Notes under the pieces: model-generated
Told to the model about the DNA's origin: nothing
Database searches by the model: none
Seen by the model: the letters and a program-made list of their open reading frames with translations, nothing else
From: an uncultured Acidobacteriota bacterium
GTDB taxonomy: Bacteria; Acidobacteriota; Thermoanaerobaculia; UBA5066
NCBI GenBank assembly: GCA_963839295.1
Contig: CAWIUK010000002.1
Location: 186,330 to 250,329, forward strand
Direction: 5' to 3'
Length of the DNA stretch: 64,000 bases
In this document: positions 2,982 through 58,654 of the stretch, piece by piece
Numbering within the stretch: position 1 is the stretch's first letter
How the letters are laid out: each line of letters opens with the position of its first letter
Program-made: the position numbers and the translations under genes

Positions 2982-3140
2982 TATAGACAGCGACTCTGGC
3001 GCGATTTCCCGCAAGAGGGGTGCCGCATCCGAACGGTCGCCGCCGATCTCAGGACAGGACTCGCGTGGTCGCGAGCGGCCCGCGGAAGACGGGCCCGGGC
3101 CCTCCGGAGACTGCTCGAAGCCACGGAGACTCCGTCTCAC

Positions 3141-18676: not shown

Positions 18677-18701
18677 GGATCCCGGCTGCCGCGGAAGACG
18701 A

Positions 18702-18725
18702 GGGGGCGCTTCGGCGCCCCCTTTT
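18702..18725. terminator. Rho-independent terminator shared by convergent genes
   Basis: GGGGGCGC-TTCG-GCGCCCCC followed by TTTT. Lies between stop 18676 (+) and stop 18725 (-). Confidence 0.7.
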
Positions 18726-19399
18726 CATTTCTTCCGGCGCGGGGCCGACGTCGGCTGCGGCGAGGTCGGGACGTCGTGCAGCGGCGGGTACGGGAGGACG
18801 GCCGCCTCTTCGGCGATCGCCTTGAAGAGATTCAGGGCCGTGAGGCGCCGCGCGCGGCGCCGGGGTATGTACGTGGGCGACAGGAGAGCGGAGAACGGCG
18901 AGTCGGCGTCGTAGTGCGAGGCCAACGACAGGTCGGTCGTCCCGTCCGGGCGCCCGTCGACGAAGAACGAGAGCGTCAGGCGCTCGACCTTCGCGTCGAG
19001 AAGGTCCGCGTCGTCCGACTTCAGCAGGAAGGCGAGGACCTCGCCGGGCTGGAGCGCGATCACGGCGAGGTCGATCCTCCGGGGCCCGTCGGCCGTCGTC
19101 GCGTCGATCGTGAGGACGTCGCCCTTGGACGCCGTCGGGCCCTTGCCGTAGGACGCGCGCCGGGGCACGACGCCGGGAATGCCCGCGAGAAGCCAGGTGC
19201 TCACCGTCTCGGGCCCCACCAGGAGGCGCCAGACGACGGCCTTGGGCGCGGTGATCGAGACGCACTCGGCCCCCTGGAACGTGGCGATGGGCGTCTCCGT
19301 GTAGCTCCTCAGCCGCGTCGTCAGCGGGTCGGGTTGCTGCGCGGCTCCGCCCTGCGCCGCGAGGGCGGCGAGGGCGAGCATCGCGAGGAAGCGCTTCAT
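18725..19399 (-). CDS. Secreted protein of unknown function
   Basis: MKRFLAMLALAALAAQGGAAQ signal peptide. Coding-like codon usage. No family recognised. Confidence 0.6.
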   Translation of the reverse strand: MKRFLAMLALAALAAQGGAAQQPDPLTTRLRSYTETPIATFQGAECVSITAPKAVVWRLLVGPETVSTWLLAGIPGVVPRRASYGKGPTASKGDVLTIDATTADGPRRIDLAVIALQPGEVLAFLLKSDDADLLDAKVERLTLSFFVDGRPDGTTDLSLASHYDADSPFSALLSPTYIPRRRARRLTALNLFKAIAEEAAVLPYPPLHDVPTSPQPTSAPRRKK

Positions 19400-38874: not shown

Positions 38875-38954
38875 TCGCCACCGTCCCGCTCGCCGTCCTC
38901 GCCGTCCTGACTCTTCTTGCGATGGCCCATCACAGCCGGGTCCGCCCCGCGTAA
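38871..38954 (+). CDS. 27-aa single-TM micro-ORF (MIATVPLAVLAVLTLLAMAHHSRVRPA)
   Basis: ATGA overlap with the upstream stop. GGGAGGGAGG ends 5 nt upstream of the ATG. Mostly G/C third positions. Its TAA lies inside the next gene's AAGGAG. Confidence 0.4.
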   Translation: MIATVPLAVLAVLTLLAMAHHSRVRPA

Positions 38955-38967
38955 GGAGAGAGTGACG

Positions 38968-39873
38968 ATGAACCTGAACCGCCGCAACCTGTTCCAGATC
39001 GCCGGCGCCGCGGGCGCGGCCACGATCGCGGGCCGCGCCCTCTCGTCGGCGACGACGCGCAGCGCCGCCAAAGACGCCGTCGGCGTCCTCGTGGACACGA
39101 CGCGCTGCGTCGGCTGCCGCGCCTGCGAAGCCGCGTGCTCCGAGGCGAATGGCCTCGCCGGGCCCGAGAAGCCGGGCGACGACACCGTGTTCGCGTCGCG
39201 CCGCCGGACCTCCCCCACGAGCTTCACGGTCGTGAACAAGTCGGCCGAGAAGAGCCCGAGCGGCGAGGACCGTTACGCGAAGACGCAGTGCATGCACTGC
39301 GTGACCCCCGCGTGCGCGTCCGGCTGCGTCGTCAAGGCGCTCGAGAAGACGGCCGCCGGGCCGGTCGTGTACCACGAGGACCGTTGCCTCGGCTGCCGCT
39401 ACTGCATGATCGCGTGCCCCTTCGGCGTTCCGAAGTACGAGTACACGAAGGCGGCCCCCCTCGTGCGCAAATGCACGTTCTGCGCGGCGCGCCAGGAAAA
39501 GGGCCTGCCGCCCGCCTGCACCGACGCGTGCCCCTCGGGCGCGCTCACGTTCGGAAAGCGGGCCGACCTCCTCGAGGAGGCCAGGACCCGCATTTACCAG
39601 AACCCCGGCAAGTACGTCCACGAGATCTACGGAGAGGACGAAGCCGGCGGCACGAGCTGGCTGTACATCTCGGACGTCTCCGCGGCGAGCCTCAACCTCC
39701 CGCAGGACATCGTGAAGAAACCCTACCCCGAGATGGCGGACGGCGCGCTCTCGGCCGTCCCGTTCATCGTGACCTTGTGGCCGCCCCTCCTCATGGGCCT
39801 CTACACCTTCAGCAAGCGCCGCGACGACGTCGCCGGACGCGAAAACGGACAGAAGGGAGCCGGCCATGAGTGA
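38968..39873 (+). CDS. Tat-exported 4x[4Fe-4S] ferredoxin-type subunit (HybA/DsrO/NrfC-like) with C-terminal TM anchor
   Basis: Trimmed to ATG 38968 (AAGGAGAG upstream). NRRNLFQIAG twin-arginine signal. CVGCRACEAAC, CMHCVTPACASGC, CLGCRYCMIACP and CTFC..CTDACP clusters. C-terminal AVPFIVTLWPPLLMGLYTF. Confidence 0.88.
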   Translation: MNLNRRNLFQIAGAAGAATIAGRALSSATTRSAAKDAVGVLVDTTRCVGCRACEAACSEANGLAGPEKPGDDTVFASRRRTSPTSFTVVNKSAEKSPSGEDRYAKTQCMHCVTPACASGCVVKALEKTAAGPVVYHEDRCLGCRYCMIACPFGVPKYEYTKAAPLVRKCTFCAARQEKGLPPACTDACPSGALTFGKRADLLEEARTRIYQNPGKYVHEIYGEDEAGGTSWLYISDVSAASLNLPQDIVKKPYPEMADGALSAVPFIVTLWPPLLMGLYTFSKRRDDVAGRENGQKGAGHE

Positions 39874-41089
39874 GACCTTCGACCGCGTCGCGGTTTCGAC
39901 CCTCGTTCGCGAAAAGGTCCTCCTCGGGATGGAACCGAAGGCATACGCGAAGAGCCTGCTGACGAAGACGAACGCGATCTTCGCGGCGATCCTCCTCGTC
40001 GGCCTCCCGACGATCGCCTACCGGTTCTGGAAGGGCATGGGCGCGGTGAGCAACCTCTCCCAGACGAACCCGTGGGGCCTCTGGGTCGCGTTCGACGTCG
40101 TCTGCGGCGTCGCGCTGGCCGCCGGCGGCTACACGGTGGCCGCGGCCGTCTACCTGTTCGGTCAGAAGCAGTTCGCCCCGGTCCTGAGGCCCGCGATCCT
40201 CACCGGCTTCCTCGGCTACCTCTTCGTCCTCGTCGGCCTCGTCGTCGACCTCGGCCAGCCCTGGCGGCTCCCCTACCAGTTCTTCCTCACGCCCGGGACG
40301 ACCGCCGTCATGTACGAGGTCGGCTGGTGCGTGTTCCTGTACCTGATGGTCCTCGCCCTCGAGTTCCTCCCGGCGGCGCTCGAGTGGCTCGGGATGACGA
40401 AGGTCCGGCGTTTCATGAGCGCGATCTCGATCGCGATCATCGTCCTCGGCGTCACGCTCTCGACCCTCCACCAGTCCTCGCTCGGCGCCTTCTTCCTCAT
40501 GTCGCCCGGCAAGCTCCACCCCCTGTGGTACTCGCCGTTCCTCCCGATCTTCTTCTTCGTGTCGTCGATCGCGGCGGGCATCGGCATGGTCATCTTCGAG
40601 AGCTCGGTCTCGCACCGGGCGTTCCAGGACCAGCTCGACCCCGAAGCGCACGTCGACATGGACGCCCTCCAGCTCGGGCTCGCCAAGGGCGGCGCGGTCG
40701 TCCTCTTCGCCTACTTCTTCGTCCGCCTCCAGGGCCTCGTCGCGAGCGGCCGGTGGGACCTCCTCCTGACCGGCTGGGGCGCGTGGTACGCCCTCGAGAT
40801 GCTCGGCTTCGTCCTGCTGCCGTCGCTCCTCTTCGCCTTCGCGGTGAGGACGCAGAGCGCGCGGCTCGCGCGCGCCGCCGGCGTCATGACGGTCCTCGGC
40901 GTCGTCCTCAACCGCTTCAACGTCGCGCTGATCGCGTTCAACTGGAACGTGCCCGACCGGTACGTTCCCGCGCTCGGCGAGATCGTCATCTCGGTCACGA
41001 TCGTCACGCTCGGCGTCCTCGTGTTCCGCTGGATCGTCAACCGCATGCCGGTGCTCCACGAGCATCCGGAATGGCGCGGCGTCCACTGA
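39866..41089 (+). CDS. NrfD/PsrC-family (HybB/DsrP-like) quinone-interacting membrane subunit
   Basis: 407 aa, about 10 TM helices. NPWGLWVAFDVVCGVALAAGGY motif. 8-nt overlap with the upstream gene. Confidence 0.88.
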   Translation: MSETFDRVAVSTLVREKVLLGMEPKAYAKSLLTKTNAIFAAILLVGLPTIAYRFWKGMGAVSNLSQTNPWGLWVAFDVVCGVALAAGGYTVAAAVYLFGQKQFAPVLRPAILTGFLGYLFVLVGLVVDLGQPWRLPYQFFLTPGTTAVMYEVGWCVFLYLMVLALEFLPAALEWLGMTKVRRFMSAISIAIIVLGVTLSTLHQSSLGAFFLMSPGKLHPLWYSPFLPIFFFVSSIAAGIGMVIFESSVSHRAFQDQLDPEAHVDMDALQLGLAKGGAVVLFAYFFVRLQGLVASGRWDLLLTGWGAWYALEMLGFVLLPSLLFAFAVRTQSARLARAAGVMTVLGVVLNRFNVALIAFNWNVPDRYVPALGEIVISVTIVTLGVLVFRWIVNRMPVLHEHPEWRGVH

Positions 41090-41108
41090 AAGAGGAGAGA
41101 GGAAACTC

Positions 41109-41774
41109 ATGCACGCCAACGACGTCCTCAGCCCTCACGCCACCAAGGCCATCGAGTACCTGCTCGCGGTCTCGTACCTCCTGCTCTTCATCCCCTTCTG
41201 GCGCTTCGTGAACGGCGCGTCGGTCGCGCAGGCCTTCGCGACGGGCTGGTTCCAGGTCCCGGAAAACGTCCACCTGCACCGCGGCCACTCCTGGGCGAAG
41301 ACGTTCGGCGGCGCGGTCGCGGTCGGCCTCGACGACTTCGCCCACAAGCTGATCGGCCCGCTCGACGCCGTCCAGCTCCCCGCGGTCGGCACGTCGCTCC
41401 GCCAGGGCCAGAAGGCCTTCACGGTCGTCGCCGACGGCAGGCCCTTCGACGTCGTCTCGCCCGTCGACGGGAACGTCGTCGCGGTGAACGAGGTCGTCCG
41501 CGCGCACCCCGCCGACGCGGTCCGCGACCCCTACGGCACGGGCTGGCTCCTGAAGGTCGAGCCCCGCTGGCTGACCGCGAACATCAAGAACCTCGTCTCG
41601 GGCGATGCCGCCCGCCGCTTCCTCGACGCGGCCGCCGAAGTCCTCGCGGGCCGTATGAGCCCCGAGCTCGGCGTCGTCCTCCAGGACGGCGGCACGCCGG
41701 TCCACGGGATCGCCCGCGAGATCGACCCGGAGCACTGGGACTCGCTCGTCCGCACGTCCCTCCGGGGCGAGTGA
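41109..41774 (+). CDS. Membrane-anchored GcvH-fold (barrel-sandwich) protein lacking the lipoyl-lysine
   Basis: N-terminal TM AIEYLLAVSYLLLFIPFWRFV. GHSWAK..VGLDDFAHKLIGP..LPAVG..VVSPVDGNVVAVN..DPYGTGWLLKV resembles GcvH. Confidence 0.7.
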   Translation: MHANDVLSPHATKAIEYLLAVSYLLLFIPFWRFVNGASVAQAFATGWFQVPENVHLHRGHSWAKTFGGAVAVGLDDFAHKLIGPLDAVQLPAVGTSLRQGQKAFTVVADGRPFDVVSPVDGNVVAVNEVVRAHPADAVRDPYGTGWLLKVEPRWLTANIKNLVSGDAARRFLDAAAEVLAGRMSPELGVVLQDGGTPVHGIAREIDPEHWDSLVRTSLRGE

Positions 41775-41784
41775 GGAGGACGCC

Positions 41785-42132
41785 ATGAACACCCTCCTCC
41801 GCTTCCTCGCGGCGACGCTCCTCCTCGCCCTTTCCACGACGCTCGACGCGGGGGCGCTGCCGAACCTCCCGAAGGACCTGGCGCTCCCGCAGGGCGACGG
41901 CAGCCCGGGCGTCGTCACCTTCCGCCACGACGCGCACGTCGACGCCTCGCGGCCCGACTGCACGACCTGCCACCCGAAACTCTTCCCCATCGTCAAACGC
42001 ACCGCCTCTTCGGCCGCCCCCGCCGCGATCCGCCACGCCGACATGGAAAAGGGCAAGAGCTGCGGCTCCTGCCACGACGGCAAGAGCGCCCACGGCCTCG
42101 ACGACTGCGGGACGTGCCACCAGGCCAAGTGA
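41785..42132 (+). CDS. Periplasmic triheme c-type cytochrome (c7/c3-like)
   Basis: Signal peptide plus CTTCH, CGSCH and CGTCH in a 115-aa protein. Confidence 0.85.
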   Translation: MNTLLRFLAATLLLALSTTLDAGALPNLPKDLALPQGDGSPGVVTFRHDAHVDASRPDCTTCHPKLFPIVKRTASSAAPAAIRHADMEKGKSCGSCHDGKSAHGLDDCGTCHQAK

Positions 42133-42141
42133 GGTGACGTC

Positions 42142-42840
42142 ATGACGCCTCTCGAATTCCTCCAGCTCGCCGGCATCTTCCTCGCGGGTCTCGTCGTCCG
42201 GATCCTCGCCTTCACCCTCGTGATCGCGGTCTGCACGCTCCCGATCATCGCCGCCTGGGCGCTCTGGCGAGCGTGGCAGATGATGCGCGACCGGCGCATC
42301 GGCCTCGTCGACATCGCGGGGCTCGAGTTCGCCGAGGCGCACCATTACGCGCCCGGCCACACGTGGCTCGCGCGGAAGAGCCGCGGCACGGTCCGCGTCG
42401 GCCTCGACGAGATCGCGGGCCGGCTCCTCCATGCGCCGACGAGCGTCTCGCTTCCGCGGCCGGGGACCGTCCTCGCCGCCGGCCTCCCCGCCGCCACCGT
42501 GAACTGCGGCGGCCGCTCGGCCACGCTCTCCGCCCCGGTGTCGGGCACCGTCGTCGCGATCAACCCCAGGGTCCTGCGGGACCCCGCGCTCCTCGAGGAG
42601 TCGCGCTACCGCAACGGCTGGCTCTTCTCGATGAAACCCGCGACGGCTTCGTTCCTCACGCTCCCGACCGGCGCCGCCGCGCGCTCCTGGTTCCAGGACG
42701 AGACGGCGCGCTTCTCGCACGCGCTCGAGACCGAGCTCGGCCTTCTTGCGGCCGACGGCGGCGAGCTCGTCGTCGAGGCGCCCGCGCTGCTGTCCGAGGA
42801 GAAGTGGCAGCGTCTCGTCTCGGAGTTCCTGAAGGGCTGA
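42142..42840 (+). CDS. Membrane-anchored GcvH-fold protein lacking the lipoyl-lysine (paralog 2)
   Basis: Hydrophobic N-terminus (residues about 6-43), then RAWQMMRDRR. GHTWLA..VGLDEIAGRLL..LPRPG..LSAPVSGTVVAIN..YRNGWLFSMKP. Confidence 0.7.
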   Translation: MTPLEFLQLAGIFLAGLVVRILAFTLVIAVCTLPIIAAWALWRAWQMMRDRRIGLVDIAGLEFAEAHHYAPGHTWLARKSRGTVRVGLDEIAGRLLHAPTSVSLPRPGTVLAAGLPAATVNCGGRSATLSAPVSGTVVAINPRVLRDPALLEESRYRNGWLFSMKPATASFLTLPTGAAARSWFQDETARFSHALETELGLLAADGGELVVEAPALLSEEKWQRLVSEFLKG

Positions 42841-43743: not shown

Positions 43744-44586
43744 ATGCGTGTTCCGGTCTGCCTGATGGCTCTCGTCGTCCTCGCCGGCTGCGCGAAGCAG
43801 CCCGCCGCCCCCGCCGCGAAGCCCGCGGCTCCCGAGGCGGCCCCCGCGGCGTCCGCGTCCGGCGTCGTGCCCGCCGCGCCCGCGCCGCCGACCCTCACCG
43901 TCTCGGGCACCGTCCTCGAGACGATGGACGCGTCGGACTACACCTACATGCGCCTCAAGACCGCGACCGGCGAGACCTGGGCGGCCGTGAACAAGACGAA
44001 GATCAAGAAGGGCGACGCCGTCACGGTCACGAACGCGATGGTGATGGACGGGTTCCAGAGCAAGACGCTCAACCGCACGTTCGACCACATCCTGTTCGGC
44101 ATCCTGGCCGGACCCGGCGGCGCGTCGCCCGCCGCAGCCGGCGCCGCGGCGCTGCCGATGGTGTCCGACCACGCGCCCACGGCGGGGACGACCGGCGGAG
44201 AGACGCCGCAGCAGATGGCCGCGCAGCACGGCCAGGCCGCGGGAGGGCCCGCGGACGCGCCGGACGTGAAGGTCCCGAAGGCCGAAGGAGCGAACGCGAA
44301 GACGGTCGCCGAGCTCTTTGCGCAGCGCGCCACGCTCAAGGGCAAGGACGTCACCGTGAAGGCCAAGGTCGTGAAGGTCACGGCCGCCGTCATGGGCAAG
44401 AACTGGCTCCACGTGCGCGACGGCTCCGGCTCGAAGGCGACGAAGGACAACGACCTCACCGTGACGACCGACGCGACCGCGAAGGTGGGCGACGTCGTGA
44501 CCGTGACCGGCCTCGTCTCGGTCGACAAGGACTTCGGGGCCGGCTACGCGTACCCGGTCATCATCGAGAGCGCGAAGCTGAAGTAA
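43744..44586 (+). CDS. Lipoprotein with two OB-fold-like repeats
   Basis: From ATG 43744 (AAGGAG upstream). VVLAGC lipobox. Two repeats ending in GDAVTVTNAMV and GDVVTVTGLVS. Confidence 0.65.
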   Translation: MRVPVCLMALVVLAGCAKQPAAPAAKPAAPEAAPAASASGVVPAAPAPPTLTVSGTVLETMDASDYTYMRLKTATGETWAAVNKTKIKKGDAVTVTNAMVMDGFQSKTLNRTFDHILFGILAGPGGASPAAAGAAALPMVSDHAPTAGTTGGETPQQMAAQHGQAAGGPADAPDVKVPKAEGANAKTVAELFAQRATLKGKDVTVKAKVVKVTAAVMGKNWLHVRDGSGSKATKDNDLTVTTDATAKVGDVVTVTGLVSVDKDFGAGYAYPVIIESAKLK

Positions 44587-46873
44587 GGCCCGCGGCGAGG
44601 AACGCGAGGAGCGTCAGCAGGGAGACGAGAGCGCCGGCGCGAAGTCCGGGCGTGAGGTAGCGAAAGACGATCCGGTGCTCTCCGGCGCCGACGCGCACGG
44701 CGCGGAAGAGGCCGTCCGCGGTGAGGATCGTCGCCGGCCGCCCGTCGAGCTCGGCCGACCAGCCTCTCGCGTTCTCCTCGAGGAGGACGGCATACCCGCC
44801 GTTCGCCGAGCGGCACGTGACGACGACCTCCTCGGGCCGCGGCGAGGCTGCCGCGCACGGCTCGAGGGAGCCGGCCGACGCGAGGGGCTCGGCGCCGGCC
44901 CCGGAGACGACGATGCGCGCCGGGTCGCCTTCGCGCCCCGGCGTGGCGAGGGAGGCGAGGCCTTCGTCCTCCGATTCGGCCCGCGCGGCCCGCGGCGCAA
45001 CGAACGCGCGCGGCCTCACGGAACCGGTCCCGACGACGCCCCACCCGGCGAGCCGTGAGAGGACGGGAGAGCCCGGCGCGAAGCGCCCGGGCTCGGGCAG
45101 CATCGCGTAGTCGACTCCGGCGAAGCTCACGAAGGCCCGGAAAGACAGGCGCGGGACCGTCTCGTCCCAGAACCTGCGGGACCGGGCGCTGTCGCCCGTC
45201 TCGAACCCCGGCACGACGTCGAAGCCGAAGAGCGACGCCACGTTCGTGTCGAGAGCCTCGAGCGTGGCGGTTGCGATCTGGGCTCCGGTCTCGAGCGTCG
45301 GCCGGGCGAGGTTCTCGTGGTCGATGAAGATGCGCGGCCGCGGGGCGGTCCCGGCGCGCGGCGGGCGGGGCAGCGCCGCGAGAAGGCGAGGCGTGTGCGC
45401 GAGGAGGGCGCGGGGCGCGAGCGCCGTGAGGGCGCGGGCCGCGAAGACGAGCGGCAGCGCGACGGAGCAGAGCGCCAGCGCCCCCGCGACCCCGGCCGCC
45501 CGCCTCCCGACGAGAACGAGCGCGAGCGCGAAGAGCGCCGCACCCGCGGCCGCGACGCCGGCGCCCGCCGCGGACAGCGCGAGTCCTTCTCCCGCGTTGA
45601 GTCCCGCGGCGCCCCGGCCGAGCCGGGACGCGAGCGCCGCCTGCTCGTTCCGGAAGTGCCCGACGGCGGCGCCGCCGGCCGCCAGGAGAGCGGCGGAGAC
45701 GAGAGAGACCCGGATCAGCCCGCGCGCCGGGAGAGCGTTCTCGAAGACCCGCGAGAACCCGGCTCCGGCGGCGACGACCCAGATCAGGAGGGCGCCGAAG
45801 AAGAACTTCTCGGGGAAGTTGATCCACCGGAGAGGCGGGAGGAAAGCGCGCAGCGCCCCGTAGAGCGGCGTGTACGAGCCGAACGCGAAGAGGAGGAAGA
45901 CCAGCGAGCCCAGGAGCAGGCGGCGGATCCGCGGCGCGCGCGCGGCGGCGAGGGCGAGAGCGAGGACGGGAACGCCGAGAAAGAGGCTGAACGCGTAGCA
46001 CGGGTCTCCGGCCGGGAGGCCCAGGGCCGGCCCGACGAACCAGCTCTCGTTCCCCTCCGAGCCGAACGCGAGCGGCCAGACGCACTCGAGGAGCCGTCCC
46101 GGCGGCATCGACCATTTCAAGGGCCCGGCGGCGGGAGCCTGGGCGCGGGCGCTCCGGCCGAGGAGGAGAAGGGCCGGGAGGAGGCCGACGGCCGCGAGAG
46201 AGAGCCCTCCGGCCGCCGGCAGCAGAAGGCGCCTCAGGCCGGCGAGCGGACGCCCGGCGGTGAGGACGACCGCCAGCGTGACGAGGCCGGCGACGACGAC
46301 GAATCCCGGCTCGCCCGAGAGGAGCTGGAGCGCCACAGCGGCCGCGAACGCGGCGCCGGTCCACCGCCGCGCACCCGGCGGGCCGGGGCCGTCCGCGTGC
46401 ACGAGGCCGGCGAGAGCCAGCCAGGGGATCCACGTCACGTACGGAATCGCTCCGTTCGGGATTGCCGAGACGACGAAGCCGTTCGTGACGACGACGGCGC
46501 CGGAGAGGAAGGCGCCGGGCGGGCCCGCCCCGAGACGCCACGCGAGGGCGGCCGCCCCGAGCGAGAGGATCAGGAGCTGGACGAGCGTGAGGGCGTCGAA
46601 GGCCCACGGCGAGCGCGAGAGGGCGAGAAGCCAGGTGAGGGGCGACGTGACGCCGTGGACGGGATTCGCGGCGAGCGCGACGCCGAACCCGACGCCGTCG
46701 AACCACTCCGGAACGCGGCCGGCGGCGAAGGCGGCGGACAGGGCCGCGCGCGACGGGCGCGTGAAGCGCAGCGCGTCGCGCAGGACGAACGTCTCGCCGA
46801 GGAAGATCACACGGGCCCAGACCGCGGCGATCAACGCTGCGAGGCCGAGGGCGACGAGGGCCGGGCGCCGCAC
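44561..46873 (-). CDS. YfhO-family polytopic membrane protein (start likely GTG 46873 rather than 46972)
   Basis: Many TM helices and a C-terminal LFRAVRVGAGEHRIVFRY segment. Codons between 46972 and 46874 are rare types (AGG AGA TTA TCA CCA). Confidence 0.7.
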   Translation of the reverse strand: MRRPALVALGLAALIAAVWARVIFLGETFVLRDALRFTRPSRAALSAAFAAGRVPEWFDGVGFGVALAANPVHGVTSPLTWLLALSRSPWAFDALTLVQLLILSLGAAALAWRLGAGPPGAFLSGAVVVTNGFVVSAIPNGAIPYVTWIPWLALAGLVHADGPGPPGARRWTGAAFAAAVALQLLSGEPGFVVVAGLVTLAVVLTAGRPLAGLRRLLLPAAGGLSLAAVGLLPALLLLGRSARAQAPAAGPLKWSMPPGRLLECVWPLAFGSEGNESWFVGPALGLPAGDPCYAFSLFLGVPVLALALAAARAPRIRRLLLGSLVFLLFAFGSYTPLYGALRAFLPPLRWINFPEKFFFGALLIWVVAAGAGFSRVFENALPARGLIRVSLVSAALLAAGGAAVGHFRNEQAALASRLGRGAAGLNAGEGLALSAAGAGVAAAGAALFALALVLVGRRAAGVAGALALCSVALPLVFAARALTALAPRALLAHTPRLLAALPRPPRAGTAPRPRIFIDHENLARPTLETGAQIATATLEALDTNVASLFGFDVVPGFETGDSARSRRFWDETVPRLSFRAFVSFAGVDYAMLPEPGRFAPGSPVLSRLAGWGVVGTGSVRPRAFVAPRAARAESEDEGLASLATPGREGDPARIVVSGAGAEPLASAGSLEPCAAASPRPEEVVVTCRSANGGYAVLLEENARGWSAELDGRPATILTADGLFRAVRVGAGEHRIVFRYLTPGLRAGALVSLLTLLAFLAAGLTSASRSR

Positions 46874-46940
46874 CGCGGCAGGGTACCAGCGGCCGCCCGC
46901 GGCGCCCGCTCTTGACGGGCGGAGTAATCTCCTTGGGCTC

Positions 46941-47021
46941 GTGAACGCGCCCAACGCCTTCGCCTTCTTCACCGTCGCCGGGTATTTCTATACGCCGGCG
47001 AGGAGGGGCGCCGCCGCGTAG
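46941..47021 (+). promoter_or_regulatory. Candidate Phe/Tyr-rich leader peptide ORF (VNAPNAFAFFTVAGYFYTPARRGAAA)
   Basis: 26 codons, 6 of them aromatic, including TAT codons. Ends 28 nt upstream of a strong terminator and 87 nt upstream of the aromatic biosynthesis gene. The GTG start has poor SD spacing. Confidence 0.35.
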
Positions 47022-47048
47022 GCGACACCGACCCCGGGTGATTCCCGA

Positions 47049-47088
47049 GGCCCCCCTCCGAAACGACGGAGGGGGGCCTTTTTCTTTT
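47049..47088 (+). terminator. Rho-independent terminator/attenuator in the 5' leader of the aromatic biosynthesis gene
   Basis: GGCCCCCCTCCG-AAACGA-CGGAGGGGGGCC followed by TTTTTCTTTT. There is no upstream plus-strand gene to terminate. Confidence 0.7.
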
Positions 47089-47107
47089 GTCCCCAAGGAG
47101 GCTTCCC

Positions 47108-48997
47108 ATGGACGGATCGACCCCCGACAACGCTGTCCCCGACGTCCCGACGCCGCGCGCGGGCTACCAGGGCGAGCCGGGCTCGTTTTCCGCGCGCGCG
47201 GCCGCGCGCGCCGGCCGCCCGCTCGCGTACGCGACGTTCGACCGGCTCCTGCGGGCGCTCCTCGGAGGCGAGGTGGACGTCGCGGTCCTCCCCGCCGCGA
47301 CGCACGGCGCGGGCCCCGTCGTCGAGCCGCTGGAGGCGCTCGCCCGGGCCCTCGAGGCCGGCGCCGTCCCGCTCGAGGTGCGCGAGGAGATCGCCGTCCC
47401 GGTCCGCCTCGTCCTCGCGGCCCCTTCCGGCGTCGCCGAGGAGGACGTGAAGGAAATCCATTCCCAGCCGCCGGTCCTGCGGCAGTGCGCGCGCCTCCTC
47501 GCGCGCCTCGACGCCGTGCCCGTCGAGACGCACGACACGGCTTTCGCGGCCCGGCGCGTCGCCGAGCTCGGCGGAGCGCGCGCGGCCGTGTGCTCCGAGG
47601 AGGCCGCGCTGGAAGCCGGTCTCGTCGTCCTCGAGGAGGACGTGTCGGACGTGAAGCCGAACGCGACGCGCTTCTGGACGGTCGCGCGCCGCTCGGACGC
47701 CGAGCCGACCGTCCGGGCGCTCTTCTTCGGCGGCGCCCGCCTCGCCTCCGCGCTGCACGACGCGGGCGCCGAAATCCTGATGCTGGCGGGCCGTCCCGGC
47801 GCGGCGGTGGGCGGGTTCGCGACGGTCCCCGCCGCGGCGCTCGGGAAAGCCGCGGGCCTCGCGGCGAAGGCGGGCGAGACGCTCGTGTGGCTCGGCCCCG
47901 CGCCCGACCACGTGCCTCCGCCGCGCCTCAGGGACGCTCCGCGGGCGACGGAGGTCCGCGCGGCCACCGTGGTCACGGCGGGGACGTTCACGGTCGGAGG
48001 CGGACGGCGGGCGGTCATCGCGGGCCCGTGCGCGGTCGAGTCGCCGGAGCAGGTGATGCGTCTCGCGAAAGCCGTCGCGCGCGCCGGAGCGACCGCGCTC
48101 CGCGGAGGCGTCTTCAAGCCCCGCACGTCGCCGTCCGCGTTCCAGGGCCACGGCCTCGAAGCGCTCGGCTGGCTGAGGGACGCGGGCGACGCGGTGGGAC
48201 TGCCGATCGTCACGGAGGTCATGGCGCCCGCGCAGGTCGAGCCCGTCGCGCGCCTCGCGGACGTCCTCCAGATCGGCGCGCGCAACTGTCAGAACTACGA
48301 CCTCCTGAAGGAGGCCGGCGGCGCGGGGCGCCCCGTGATGCTGAAGCGCGGCTTCGGGACGACGGTCGAGGAGTGGCTCAGCGCCGCCGAGTACATCCTC
48401 GCCGCGGGCTGCCGCGACGTCCTCCTGTGCGAGCGCGGAATCCGGACGTTCGAGCGCGCGACGCGCGGCACGCTCGACCTCGGTGGTCTCCTCGCGGCGC
48501 GCTCCCTCACGCACCTGCCGCTCCTCGCGGACCCCTCGCACGCCGCGGGCCGGAAGGAACTCGTGCCGGGCCTCGCCCGCGCCGCGTGGGGCGCCGGCGT
48601 CGACGGCCTCATGATCGAGGTCCACGACGCGCCTGAGTCCGCGCTCTGCGACGGGCCGCAGGCGCTCCTGCCGGACGACCTCGAGATGCTTCTCGACGAG
48701 TTCGGCCTCCTGCCGGGGCGCACGGGCTCGGTCGAACGCGTGCGGCGCGCGATCGACTCCGTGGACTCCTCCATCGCCGCGCTCGCGGCCCGGAGGCTCG
48801 AGCTCTGCCGCCGCGTCGCGGAGGTCAAGAAGTCGACGGGGAGGCCCGTCCGCGACGAGGCGCGCGAGGCGACCGTGCGCGCGCGCTTCGCCGAGAGCCT
48901 CGGGAAGGACGCGACGAAGGCCGCGGGCCTCGCGGACGCGCTCATCGCCCTCGGTCTCGAGGCCGAGGGATGGGAGGGGGACGTCACTCCCCGATGA
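47108..48997 (+). CDS. Tri-domain fusion: prephenate dehydratase - DAHP synthase (type I-beta) - chorismate mutase (AroQ)
   Basis: ATG 47108 (AAGGAGG upstream). PDT domain [23 protein letters not shown] domain [30 protein letters not shown] domain [29 protein letters not shown]. Confidence 0.9.
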
Positions 48998-58350: not shown

Positions 58351-58379
58351 TTGACGGGCGGCCTCCCGCCCCTTAGCAT
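58351..58379 (+). promoter_or_regulatory. Sigma-70-type promoter upstream of rpsU
   Basis: TTGACG, a 17-nt spacer, then TAGCAT, about 70 nt upstream of GTG 58448. GGAAGGAGGG SD precedes the start. Confidence 0.45.
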
Positions 58380-58447
58380 GTGGGGTTTGCCCGCGTCCGG
58401 AGCCTCGTGTCCGGACCAGTCGGGGCGCGGAAGGAGGGATTCCAAAA

Positions 58448-58654
58448 GTGCCGCTGATCCACGTCAAAGAGGACGAGTCGTTCGAGAACGCCCTGCGCCG
58501 TTTCAAGCGCAAGTGCGAGAAGTCCGGCATCCTCTCCGAGCTCAAGAAGCGTCAGCACTACGAGAAGCCCTCGGCCAAGCGGAAACGCAAGGCCATCGCC
58601 GCCCGCAAGAAGATGCTCCGCAAACTCGCCGAAGAGCGCCGCACCGGGATGTAA
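58448..58654 (+). CDS. rpsU: 30S ribosomal protein S21
   Basis: [42 protein letters not shown]. Confidence 0.95.

Follow-up and report, generated by a model that had tools for sequence, protein, structure and literature searches.

Why should a strong transcription terminator stand directly in front of a gene for aromatic amino acid biosynthesis when no gene lies upstream on the same strand for it to terminate? This question is raised by a locus in the 64,000-nucleotide stretch of DNA analyzed here (the window), which comes from an uncultured Acidobacteriota bacterium of the class Thermoanaerobaculia (assembly GCA_963839295.1, contig CAWIUK010000002.1, positions 186,330 to 250,329 of the forward strand) and has a G+C content of about 72%. 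A first-pass annotation had pointed out the terminator, 20 nucleotides (nt) ahead of the gene, together with the lack of an upstream plus-strand gene, and had proposed attenuation through a leader peptide with Phe and Tyr codons. Both observations hold, since every coordinate of the terminator was confirmed and the gene upstream, which is yfhO-like, lies on the minus strand. Judging from conservation, coding signature and predicted folds, it is likely that the element is a ribosome-mediated (leader-peptide) transcription attenuator that senses the charging of tRNA-Phe and tRNA-Tyr and controls the downstream gene, a fusion of three enzymes. The parts of the element and the gene lie in the following order.

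46912 to 46917, plus strand: conserved TTGACG motif resembling a -35 hexamer, 7 nt from the -10-like hexamer
46925 to 46930, plus strand: TAATCT, a -10-like TAnnnT hexamer, 10 nt 5' of the leader start
46941 to 47021, plus strand: candidate leader open reading frame (ORF) of 26 codons plus TAG, VNAPNAFAFFTVAGYFYTPARRGAAA, with a GTG start, four Phe and two Tyr codons
46959 to 46970, plus strand: region 1, codons Phe7-Ala8-Phe9-Phe10 (TTC GCC TTC TTC), pyrimidine-rich; its predicted partner, at the base of the 1:2 hairpin, is the antiterminator strand
46975 to 47001, plus strand: predicted apical hairpin with the codons Tyr15-Phe16-Tyr17 (TAT TTC TAT, 46983 to 46991)
47002 to 47008, plus strand: region 2, antiterminator strand GGAGGGG, in leader codons 21 to 23, predicted to pair with 47053 to 47059
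47019 to 47021, plus strand: leader stop codon TAG
47049 to 47060, plus strand: region 3, terminator left arm GGCCCCCCTCCG, common to antiterminator and terminator
47067 to 47088, plus strand: region 4, terminator right arm CGGAGGGGGGCC (47067 to 47078) and T tract TTTTTCTTTT (47079 to 47088)
47095 to 47101, plus strand: Shine-Dalgarno (SD) sequence AAGGAGG of the regulated gene, conserved in orthologues
47108 to 48997, plus strand: regulated gene, with its ATG at 47108, for a fusion protein of 629 amino acids comprising prephenate dehydratase, 3-deoxy-D-arabino-heptulosonate 7-phosphate (DAHP) synthase of the type I family and chorismate mutase type II

The three enzymes of the fusion protein are recognized by Pfam as PDT (residues 19 to 195), DAHP_synth_1 (293 to 527) and CM_2 (545 to 598), and this architecture was the same in every orthologue tested, with or without a leader. 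The common aromatic pathway begins with DAHP synthase and its branch to Phe and Tyr with chorismate mutase, and prephenate dehydratase is specific to Phe; an attenuator that senses Phe and Tyr would suit the gene because of these pathway steps. No ACT regulatory domain was detected by Pfam in the fusion proteins of either leader-bearing or leader-less loci, so the attenuator may be the main means of controlling this step.

The terminator has a stem of 12 base pairs and a 6-nt loop, which a pattern scan lengthens to 14 pairs (47047 to 47080) with a folding energy of -32.0 kcal/mol. This hairpin was the strongest terminator-like site in the 60 kb compared, and the region from 46930 to 47110 folds with a z-score of -5.1 against dinucleotide shuffles. 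Its left arm is also the partner in the proposed alternative structure, as GGAGGGG in the leader ORF is complementary to CCCCTCC at 47053 to 47059.

A scan of one genome per species gave 66 loci, 43 of which contain the N-terminal part of an orthologous fusion gene. The proteins are 65 to 95% identical to the fusion of the window and come from metagenome-assembled genomes (MAGs) labelled Thermoanaerobaculia, Holophagales or Acidobacteriota. A leader with the full ordered set of parts was present at 29 of the 43 loci: CTTGAC[AG], 7 nt and TAnnnT; an ATG or GTG about 10 nt further on; a frame of 25 to 31 codons; a GGAGGGG-like string near the 3' end of that frame; an in-frame stop codon; and, about 30 nt on, the hairpin GCCCCCCUCC...GGAGGGGGGC with a T tract. 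The window and these 29 loci make up the 30 leaders referred to below, while the 29 in-frame leaders are the window plus 28 of the 29 loci, as the leader of L065 is frameshifted. Relatives that keep the terminator thus keep the aromatic ORF as well, in 28 loci intact and in one with the frameshift. The gene upstream of the leader varies: only L031 has yfhO there, seven loci (L001, L003, L008, L030, L032, L034 and L040) have a lipoprotein-like gene, and the rest have other genes. The conserved block therefore travels with the fusion gene.

Leader and terminator are missing from the other 14 loci (L004, L005, L009 to L019 and L038; near position 3000 of each). There the fusion gene directly follows the plus-strand lipoprotein-like gene, which has no Pfam match. 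L038 retains a degenerate hairpin and T tract that may be a relic. No such leader was found at stand-alone DAHP synthase genes of other lineages (L047 to L064). An incomplete fusion gene with 84% identity occurs in L044, from a MAG that carries the label Acidithiobacillales, which probably reflects a binning error rather than gene transfer.

Alignment of orthologous leaders, which the first-pass annotation had suggested as a check, showed that the aromatic ORF and the antiterminator and terminator hairpins are conserved and that the pairings covary. Aligning whole leaders with MAFFT and folding the alignment with RNAalifold recovered the terminator only; the ORF region was misaligned, the Tyr hairpin shifting its position against the Tyr codon from group to group. 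In its place, each sequence was folded separately, and an anchored alignment was assembled from the antiterminator (15 nt), the left arm (16 nt) and the right arm (16 nt). Ten core pairs of the terminator were invariant or nearly so in all 30 sequences and the terminal pairs covaried; the terminator of L026 carries a compensating C-to-U and G-to-A change. In every leader, the antiterminator strand and the left arm form a duplex (-15 to -28 kcal/mol). Essentially all 30 leaders retain its seven core pairs, and covariation is seen at three flanking pairs (GC/CG 11:8, GC/CG 12:2 and CG/UA 9:5). The covariation score of 0.086 was not reached by any of 500 shuffles (0.051 +/- 0.007), and slid registers scored 0.014 to 0.067. 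Depending on the group, the inner end of the left arm reads CCG, CCCC or CCGC, and its partners change in step, the antiterminator to (A/C)GG, GGGG or GCGG/GUGG and the right arm to CGG, GGGG or GCGG. Such three-way covariation among antiterminator, left arm and right arm is, at the level of sequence, a hallmark of alternative pairing. The earlier proposal that GGAGGGG in the 3' codons of the ORF pairs with CCCCTCC of the left arm is therefore upheld, as the pairing is kept and covaries in orthologues.

The terminator was also considered as a generic genome-wide repeat, an idea that was rejected because the window has a single copy, and so does each leader locus. A metagenome scan for CCCCCCTCC followed after 3 to 16 nt by GGAGGGGGGC was uninformative: among the matches listed, 80 loci were unrelated G-rich repeats or hairpins, none with the fusion gene downstream.

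The leader ORF requires a different kind of evidence, since the window alone cannot show that it is real. Stop codons are rare at about 72% G+C, and by our estimate an open frame of 26 codons is for that reason unremarkable. In addition, the leader frame has no upstream stop until 46260, so that the 26-codon ORF is defined by the choice of the GTG, which is justified by the orthologues and not by the window alone. The coordinates (46941 to 47021) and the six aromatic codons given in the first-pass annotation stand; the fixing of the ORF bounds from the window alone does not.

The evidence beyond chance comes from conservation. The 29 in-frame leaders start with ATG (16) or GTG (13) and nothing else, and an in-frame stop codon is found in 29 of the 30 leaders (TAG in 23, TAA in 4 and TGA in 2). 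Six leader lengths occur (25, 26, 27, 28, 29 and 31 codons), with changes in whole codons only. Phe accounts for 9.7% of leader residues and Tyr for 5.8%, compared to 3.4% and 1.5% in the genes of the window. Across the leaders, 76 TTY triplets (Y, pyrimidine) are in frame versus 6 and 23 in the other two frames, and counting one leader per sequence cluster in the same table gives 38 versus 2 and 12. Every leader has one Tyr codon 10 to 12 codons before the stop, and it is TAT in 26 of 29. Both Tyr codons of the window leader are TAT, a codon that had been judged rare by eye; the count agrees, with 15 TAT to 208 TAC in the genes of the window. The N-terminal half of the peptide is variable and keeps its Phe codons, at positions 7, 9 and 10 in the window, 5, 7 and 9 in L031, and 7 and 10 in L002. 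Leader peptides evolve in this manner, with free sequence change and retained Phe codons.

The Phe and Tyr codons also appear to be part of the RNA structure. Because the Phe codons form the 5' strand of a predicted 1:2 hairpin with the Tyr codons at its tip, the modelled layout is the full classical four-region one, a refinement of the scheme proposed earlier. The 1:2 hairpin of the window (46959 to 47010) has a predicted energy of -26.4 kcal/mol (z = -3.4). The same shape, with Tyr at the tip and a pyrimidine strand on the G-rich strand at the base, was obtained for 9 of 12 representative leaders, with the Phe codons UUC UUC frequently serving as the pyrimidine strand. The conserved Tyr codon, which corresponds to Tyr17 in the window, lies in or near the loop of a predicted GC-rich hairpin in most of the 29 orthologous leaders, and the stem of this hairpin differs between groups (examples are GCCGGGUAU/AUACGCCGGC, GGCGGAUA/UAUCCGCC, GCCGAGUA/UAUUCGGC and GGCGGCGU/ACGCCGUC); for L008 and L043 the prediction is only a weak stem with an 11-nt loop. 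These folds make a 1:2 anti-antiterminator helix likely.

The spacing of the parts fits control by ribosome position. The first base of the conserved Tyr codon lies 13 to 19 nt (mode, 15) before the A of GGAGGGG, and this A lies 13 to 20 nt before the stop codon; in the window, GGAGGGG begins 13 nt downstream of the first Tyr17 base, and its own last base lies 11 nt upstream of the stop. If the ribosome is assumed to cover about -15 to +12 nt relative to the A site, a ribosome at the Tyr codon would stop just short of the antiterminator strand, and a ribosome at the stop codon would cover it. Folding with the footprint masked agrees. For an A site at Phe7, Phe10 or Tyr17, nascent RNA ending ahead of the right arm formed the antiterminator with two nested small hairpins; for an A site at the stop codon, the antiterminator strand was hidden and the full RNA formed the terminator. 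Terminator and antiterminator, whose comparison by folding had been recommended, thus both fold, and the predicted structure switches between them with the simulated position of the ribosome. Together with the joint conservation of leader ORF, antiterminator and terminator in 29 loci, this supports the attenuation logic of the first-pass annotation.

We infer the following course of events. Transcription would start at, or probably a few nt before, the leader start GTG at 46941, and a ribosome would translate the 26-codon leader while RNA polymerase makes the downstream segments. With plentiful Phe-tRNA and Tyr-tRNA, the ribosome would reach the stop codon at 47019 and cover GGAGGGG (47002 to 47008); the left arm (47049 to 47060) would then pair with the right arm (47067 to 47078), transcription would stop in the T tract, and no mRNA of the fusion gene would be made. 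Under scarcity, the ribosome would stall at Phe 7, 9 or 10 or at the Tyr15-Phe16-Tyr17 cluster. The stalled ribosome would melt or block the 1:2 hairpin, where the strand with the Phe codons ties up GGAGGGG, and leave GGAGGGG exposed. Ahead of the synthesis of the right arm, free GGAGGGG would pair with CCCCUCC in the left arm, which would exclude the terminator and allow the fusion gene to be transcribed. In such a response to amino acid supply, either Phe or Tyr might carry the greater weight.

Several observations weigh against this interpretation. The antiterminator register in the anchored alignment was set by best complementarity, which favours the pairing percentages. Over all leaders, the duplex between the upstream ORF and the G-rich strand barely beats shuffles (mean z = -0.8). 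At equilibrium, the ribosome-free nascent RNA of the window prefers the antiterminator, so that termination without translation would depend on the 1:2 hairpin forming first, that is, on folding kinetics. The Phe codons number 0 to 4 per leader and are scattered, the longest run being two (FF), and a few leaders hold just two aromatic codons, as in L021 with one Phe and one Tyr. Conservation in the peptide (G-x-Y-x-P, RRG and GGG) is partly due to constraints of RNA pairing and not of the peptide. In the leader of L065 (2770 to 2960), a 1-nt frameshift occurs after the conserved ATG and ahead of the conserved stop; the downstream frame still ends in ...PAFFDLGGHFYTPPRRGPAA and the stop, and the frameshift may be an assembly error, the contig name suggesting a long-read MAG. 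Finally, the initiation signals are unusual. The two hexamers of TTGAC-N7-TAnnnT are 7 nt apart and not 17 nt as for sigma-70, and an SD-like sequence before the leader start was found in none of the 29 leaders, though the fusion gene has a strong one. The GTG start and its poor SD spacing had already been noted as a caveat in the first-pass annotation; the start is ATG in 16 of 29 leaders, and the SD is lacking throughout.

The upstream motif itself is well conserved. TTGAC[AG] occurs in 27 of the 30 leaders, the T, A and final T of TAnnnT are invariant in the alignment, and in 22 of 27 leaders TAnnnT is separated from the start codon by a spacer of 10 nt; the spacer is pyrimidine-rich. Since there is no SD and TAnnnT lies 10 nt upstream of the start, it is plausible from the sequence that the leader mRNA is leaderless or nearly so, with a very short 5' untranslated region. 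The TTGACG motif may be a transcription factor site or operator beside a -10 element, or part of an unusual promoter; if it is an operator, at about -25, it would provide a second layer of control by a transcription factor. Among the Thermoanaerobaculia loci compared, TTGAC-N7-TAnnnT occurs at leaders only, and on that ground the motif was rejected as a general promoter type of the organism. The gene for ribosomal protein S21 (rpsU, 58351 to 58650 in the window) has a canonical TTGACG-17-TAGCAT promoter and the SD GGAAGGAGGG, which shows that standard sigma-70 spacing and SD-led initiation are in use elsewhere in this organism. An inverted repeat surrounding TAnnnT was considered as a 5' RNA hairpin or operator and dropped, as it did not outperform shuffles (mean z = -0.86).

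The terminator core GCCCCCCUCC / GGAGGGGGGC (47050 to 47077) is almost invariant though orthologous proteins may be only 65% identical. This exceeds the needs of pairing, and the three-way constraint accounts for part of it. One further idea, which we regard as rather unlikely, is that GGAGG of the antiterminator is an SD mimic, which the terminating ribosome, besides covering it, would hold by base-pairing with the anti-SD of its 16S rRNA, helping to set termination. GGAGG ends 7 to 14 nt upstream of the final sense codon, matching the customary spacing between SD and P site. Mimicry of this kind could add to the invariance of the terminator core and, together with the three-way pairing constraint, might explain the near-invariant G-rich and C-rich strands at 65% protein identity.

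It is also possible to read the switch without a translating ribosome, as one set by a trans-acting factor or ligand (a TRAP- or PyrR-like protein, uncharged tRNA as in a T-box, or a small molecule), with the ORF being incidental. Much of the conserved sequence does sit in hairpins, the conserved Tyr triplet is at a hairpin tip like a displayed codon, the leader has no SD, and an open frame is ordinary in DNA of 72% G+C. What such a reading leaves unexplained is why an untranslated RNA should show swaps between ATG and GTG and among TAG, TAA and TGA, whole-codon insertions and deletions and an in-frame excess of TTY, or why the N-terminal half should vary and yet hold its Phe count. Moreover, no Rfam family matched the window or ten orthologous loci at the gathering score, and for Phe_leader and T-box there was no match in 46700 to 47300 even at E <= 10. 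We therefore regard a trans-acting factor as unlikely.

If the leader is translated, the peptide could in principle act as an arrest peptide of the TnaC type, with G-x-Y-x-P stalling the ribosome on a free aromatic amino acid and not on an uncharged tRNA. G-[x]-Y-[TSA]-P is the best conserved segment of the peptide and is fixed 10 to 12 codons before the stop, and for a starvation sensor it is unusual that all leaders have just one Tyr codon in common. The logic of such an arrest would be inverted, however: a stall at Tyr exposes the antiterminator, and abundance of the amino acid would then induce a biosynthetic gene. In addition, the codons for G, G and P are explained by the GC-rich arms of the hairpin, and the peptide upstream of the motif is not conserved, which together make an arrest peptide very improbable.

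A constitutive terminator or insulator against upstream read-through or antisense-related transcription, with no switch at all, would agree with the seven orthologous loci in which a plus-strand gene ends just before the leader region. In the window, though, the upstream gene is on the opposite strand. Where such a plus-strand gene precedes it, the hairpin lies about 130 nt past the stop of that gene, and it is downstream of the conserved promoter-like motif. A plain terminator also fails to account for an antiterminator and a leader ORF that are conserved and covary with the hairpin. Between 47088 and 47108 there is no room for a promoter of the fusion gene itself, and a hairpin of -32 kcal/mol placed 20 nt before an essential biosynthetic gene would silence it. 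We consider this explanation highly improbable.

The last alternative concerns the neighbouring gene:

44561 to 46873, minus strand: divergent gene for a yfhO-like membrane protein (Pfam YfhO), outside the element, with GTG 46873 as its likely start

That 46874 to 46972 is an N-terminal coding extension of this gene, with the plus-strand leader as its mirror image, is scarcely credible, since the minus-strand frame is indeed open to GTG 46972 but the stretch beyond GTG 46873 has rare codons (TTA, AGA, CCA and TCA), the leader occurs at 29 loci with yfhO upstream in L031 only, and the tblastn match to YfhO of L031 begins at residue 20 of a query begun at GTG 46873. The Lys-rich extension had been judged noncoding in the first-pass annotation, and the rare codons and the leaders at loci without yfhO bear this out. 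As the leader is kept where yfhO is absent, the sequence comparison makes 46873, not 46972, the most likely start of yfhO and the leader region intergenic. Downstream of the fusion gene, the next gene encodes a Ser/Thr kinase and is convergent, and the leader would therefore control a single gene. The remaining neighbours in the window have no relation to amino acid synthesis.

Ribosome-mediated attenuation by a Phe/Tyr leader, the interpretation we favour, has well-known counterparts. In pheL-pheA of Escherichia coli, a leader with Phe codons precedes the prephenate dehydratase gene, and a ribosome stalled at these codons prevents termination (PMC3082878, PMC11802643). The Acidobacteriota element likewise has a short ORF with Phe codons before a prephenate dehydratase and a terminator with an alternative antiterminator. 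It differs in belonging to another phylum, in a regulated gene that also contains DAHP synthase, and in a leader of 25 to 31 codons versus 15 for pheL; compared to pheL as described in PMC3082878, it has no long Phe run, always a Tyr codon and no SD. In Corynebacterium glutamicum, the aroR leader with Phe-Tyr-Phe precedes the DAHP synthase gene aroF and acts through ribosome stalling (PMC11802643, PMC3890552), and the leader peptide of the ilvBNC attenuator is made from a leaderless mRNA (PMC11857589). A mixed Phe/Tyr leader before a DAHP synthase gene is thus common to aroR and the present element, with Tyr-Phe-Tyr in place of Phe-Tyr-Phe, and C. glutamicum too is a high-GC organism with, in ilvBNC (PMC11857589), a precedent for a leaderless leader-peptide mRNA. 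By this analogy, the element seems in its working even more like aroR than like pheL-pheA. The likeness is functional; aroR belongs to an unrelated lineage (Actinobacteria) at a distance that makes homology unlikely. In aroR, furthermore, only Phe limitation acted, whereas the universal codon in the present leaders is Tyr.

With E. coli trpL, the predicted architecture shares four segments with 1:2, 2:3 and 3:4 pairings, regulatory codons in or beside segment 1 and a stop codon placed so that a terminating ribosome would cover segment 2. In contrast to trpL, segments 2 and 4 are near-identical and G-rich and segment 3 is C-rich, all almost invariant in the clade; an extra apical hairpin with the Tyr codons is nested in 1:2, and two small hairpins, one of which holds the stop codon, are nested in 2:3. 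The aromatic T-box leaders of Firmicutes also choose between terminator and antiterminator and read through on a specific uncharged tRNA, but the present element has no T-box sequence or specifier-loop architecture, and it is a translated ORF that would do the sensing.

In the papers searched, we found no description of an aromatic attenuator in Acidobacteria, nor of this triple fusion. The element is a well-supported candidate for controlling how aromatic amino acids are made in Acidobacteriota (Thermoanaerobaculia and Holophagales), in which a Phe/Tyr sensor appears to be tied to an unusual three-enzyme fusion gene. It would extend classical attenuation, with a leader peptide that is probably leaderless, past Proteobacteria and Actinobacteria, and the approximately 30 leader sequences could seed a new RNA family. 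No principle of gene regulation is altered by the finding; the mechanism is already known and is found here in a little-studied phylum.

A few further observations concern the rest of the window. The terminator scan gave no other attenuator candidates. The only other strong terminator, at 18700 to 18733 (GAGGGGGCGC TTCG GCGCCCCCTT and a T tract), is of the ordinary 3'-end type and sits 24 nt past the stop of a gene for a protein of 1,153 amino acids. Long open frames run in the wrong frame or antisense over yfhO and the fusion gene (44544 to 47096, minus; 45317 to 46915, plus; 46260 to 47021, plus; and 46988 to 48625, minus). Their translations are rich in Arg, Pro and Gly, the usual artefact of high-GC DNA, and one of the frames extends the leader frame in the upstream direction. 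From 38917 to 42840, the window has genes for a 4Fe-4S dicluster protein and an NrfD-like membrane protein; behind them lie two genes in tandem whose products contain a glycine-cleavage-H (lipoyl-type) domain, and a sigma-54 activator gene lies upstream of this group.

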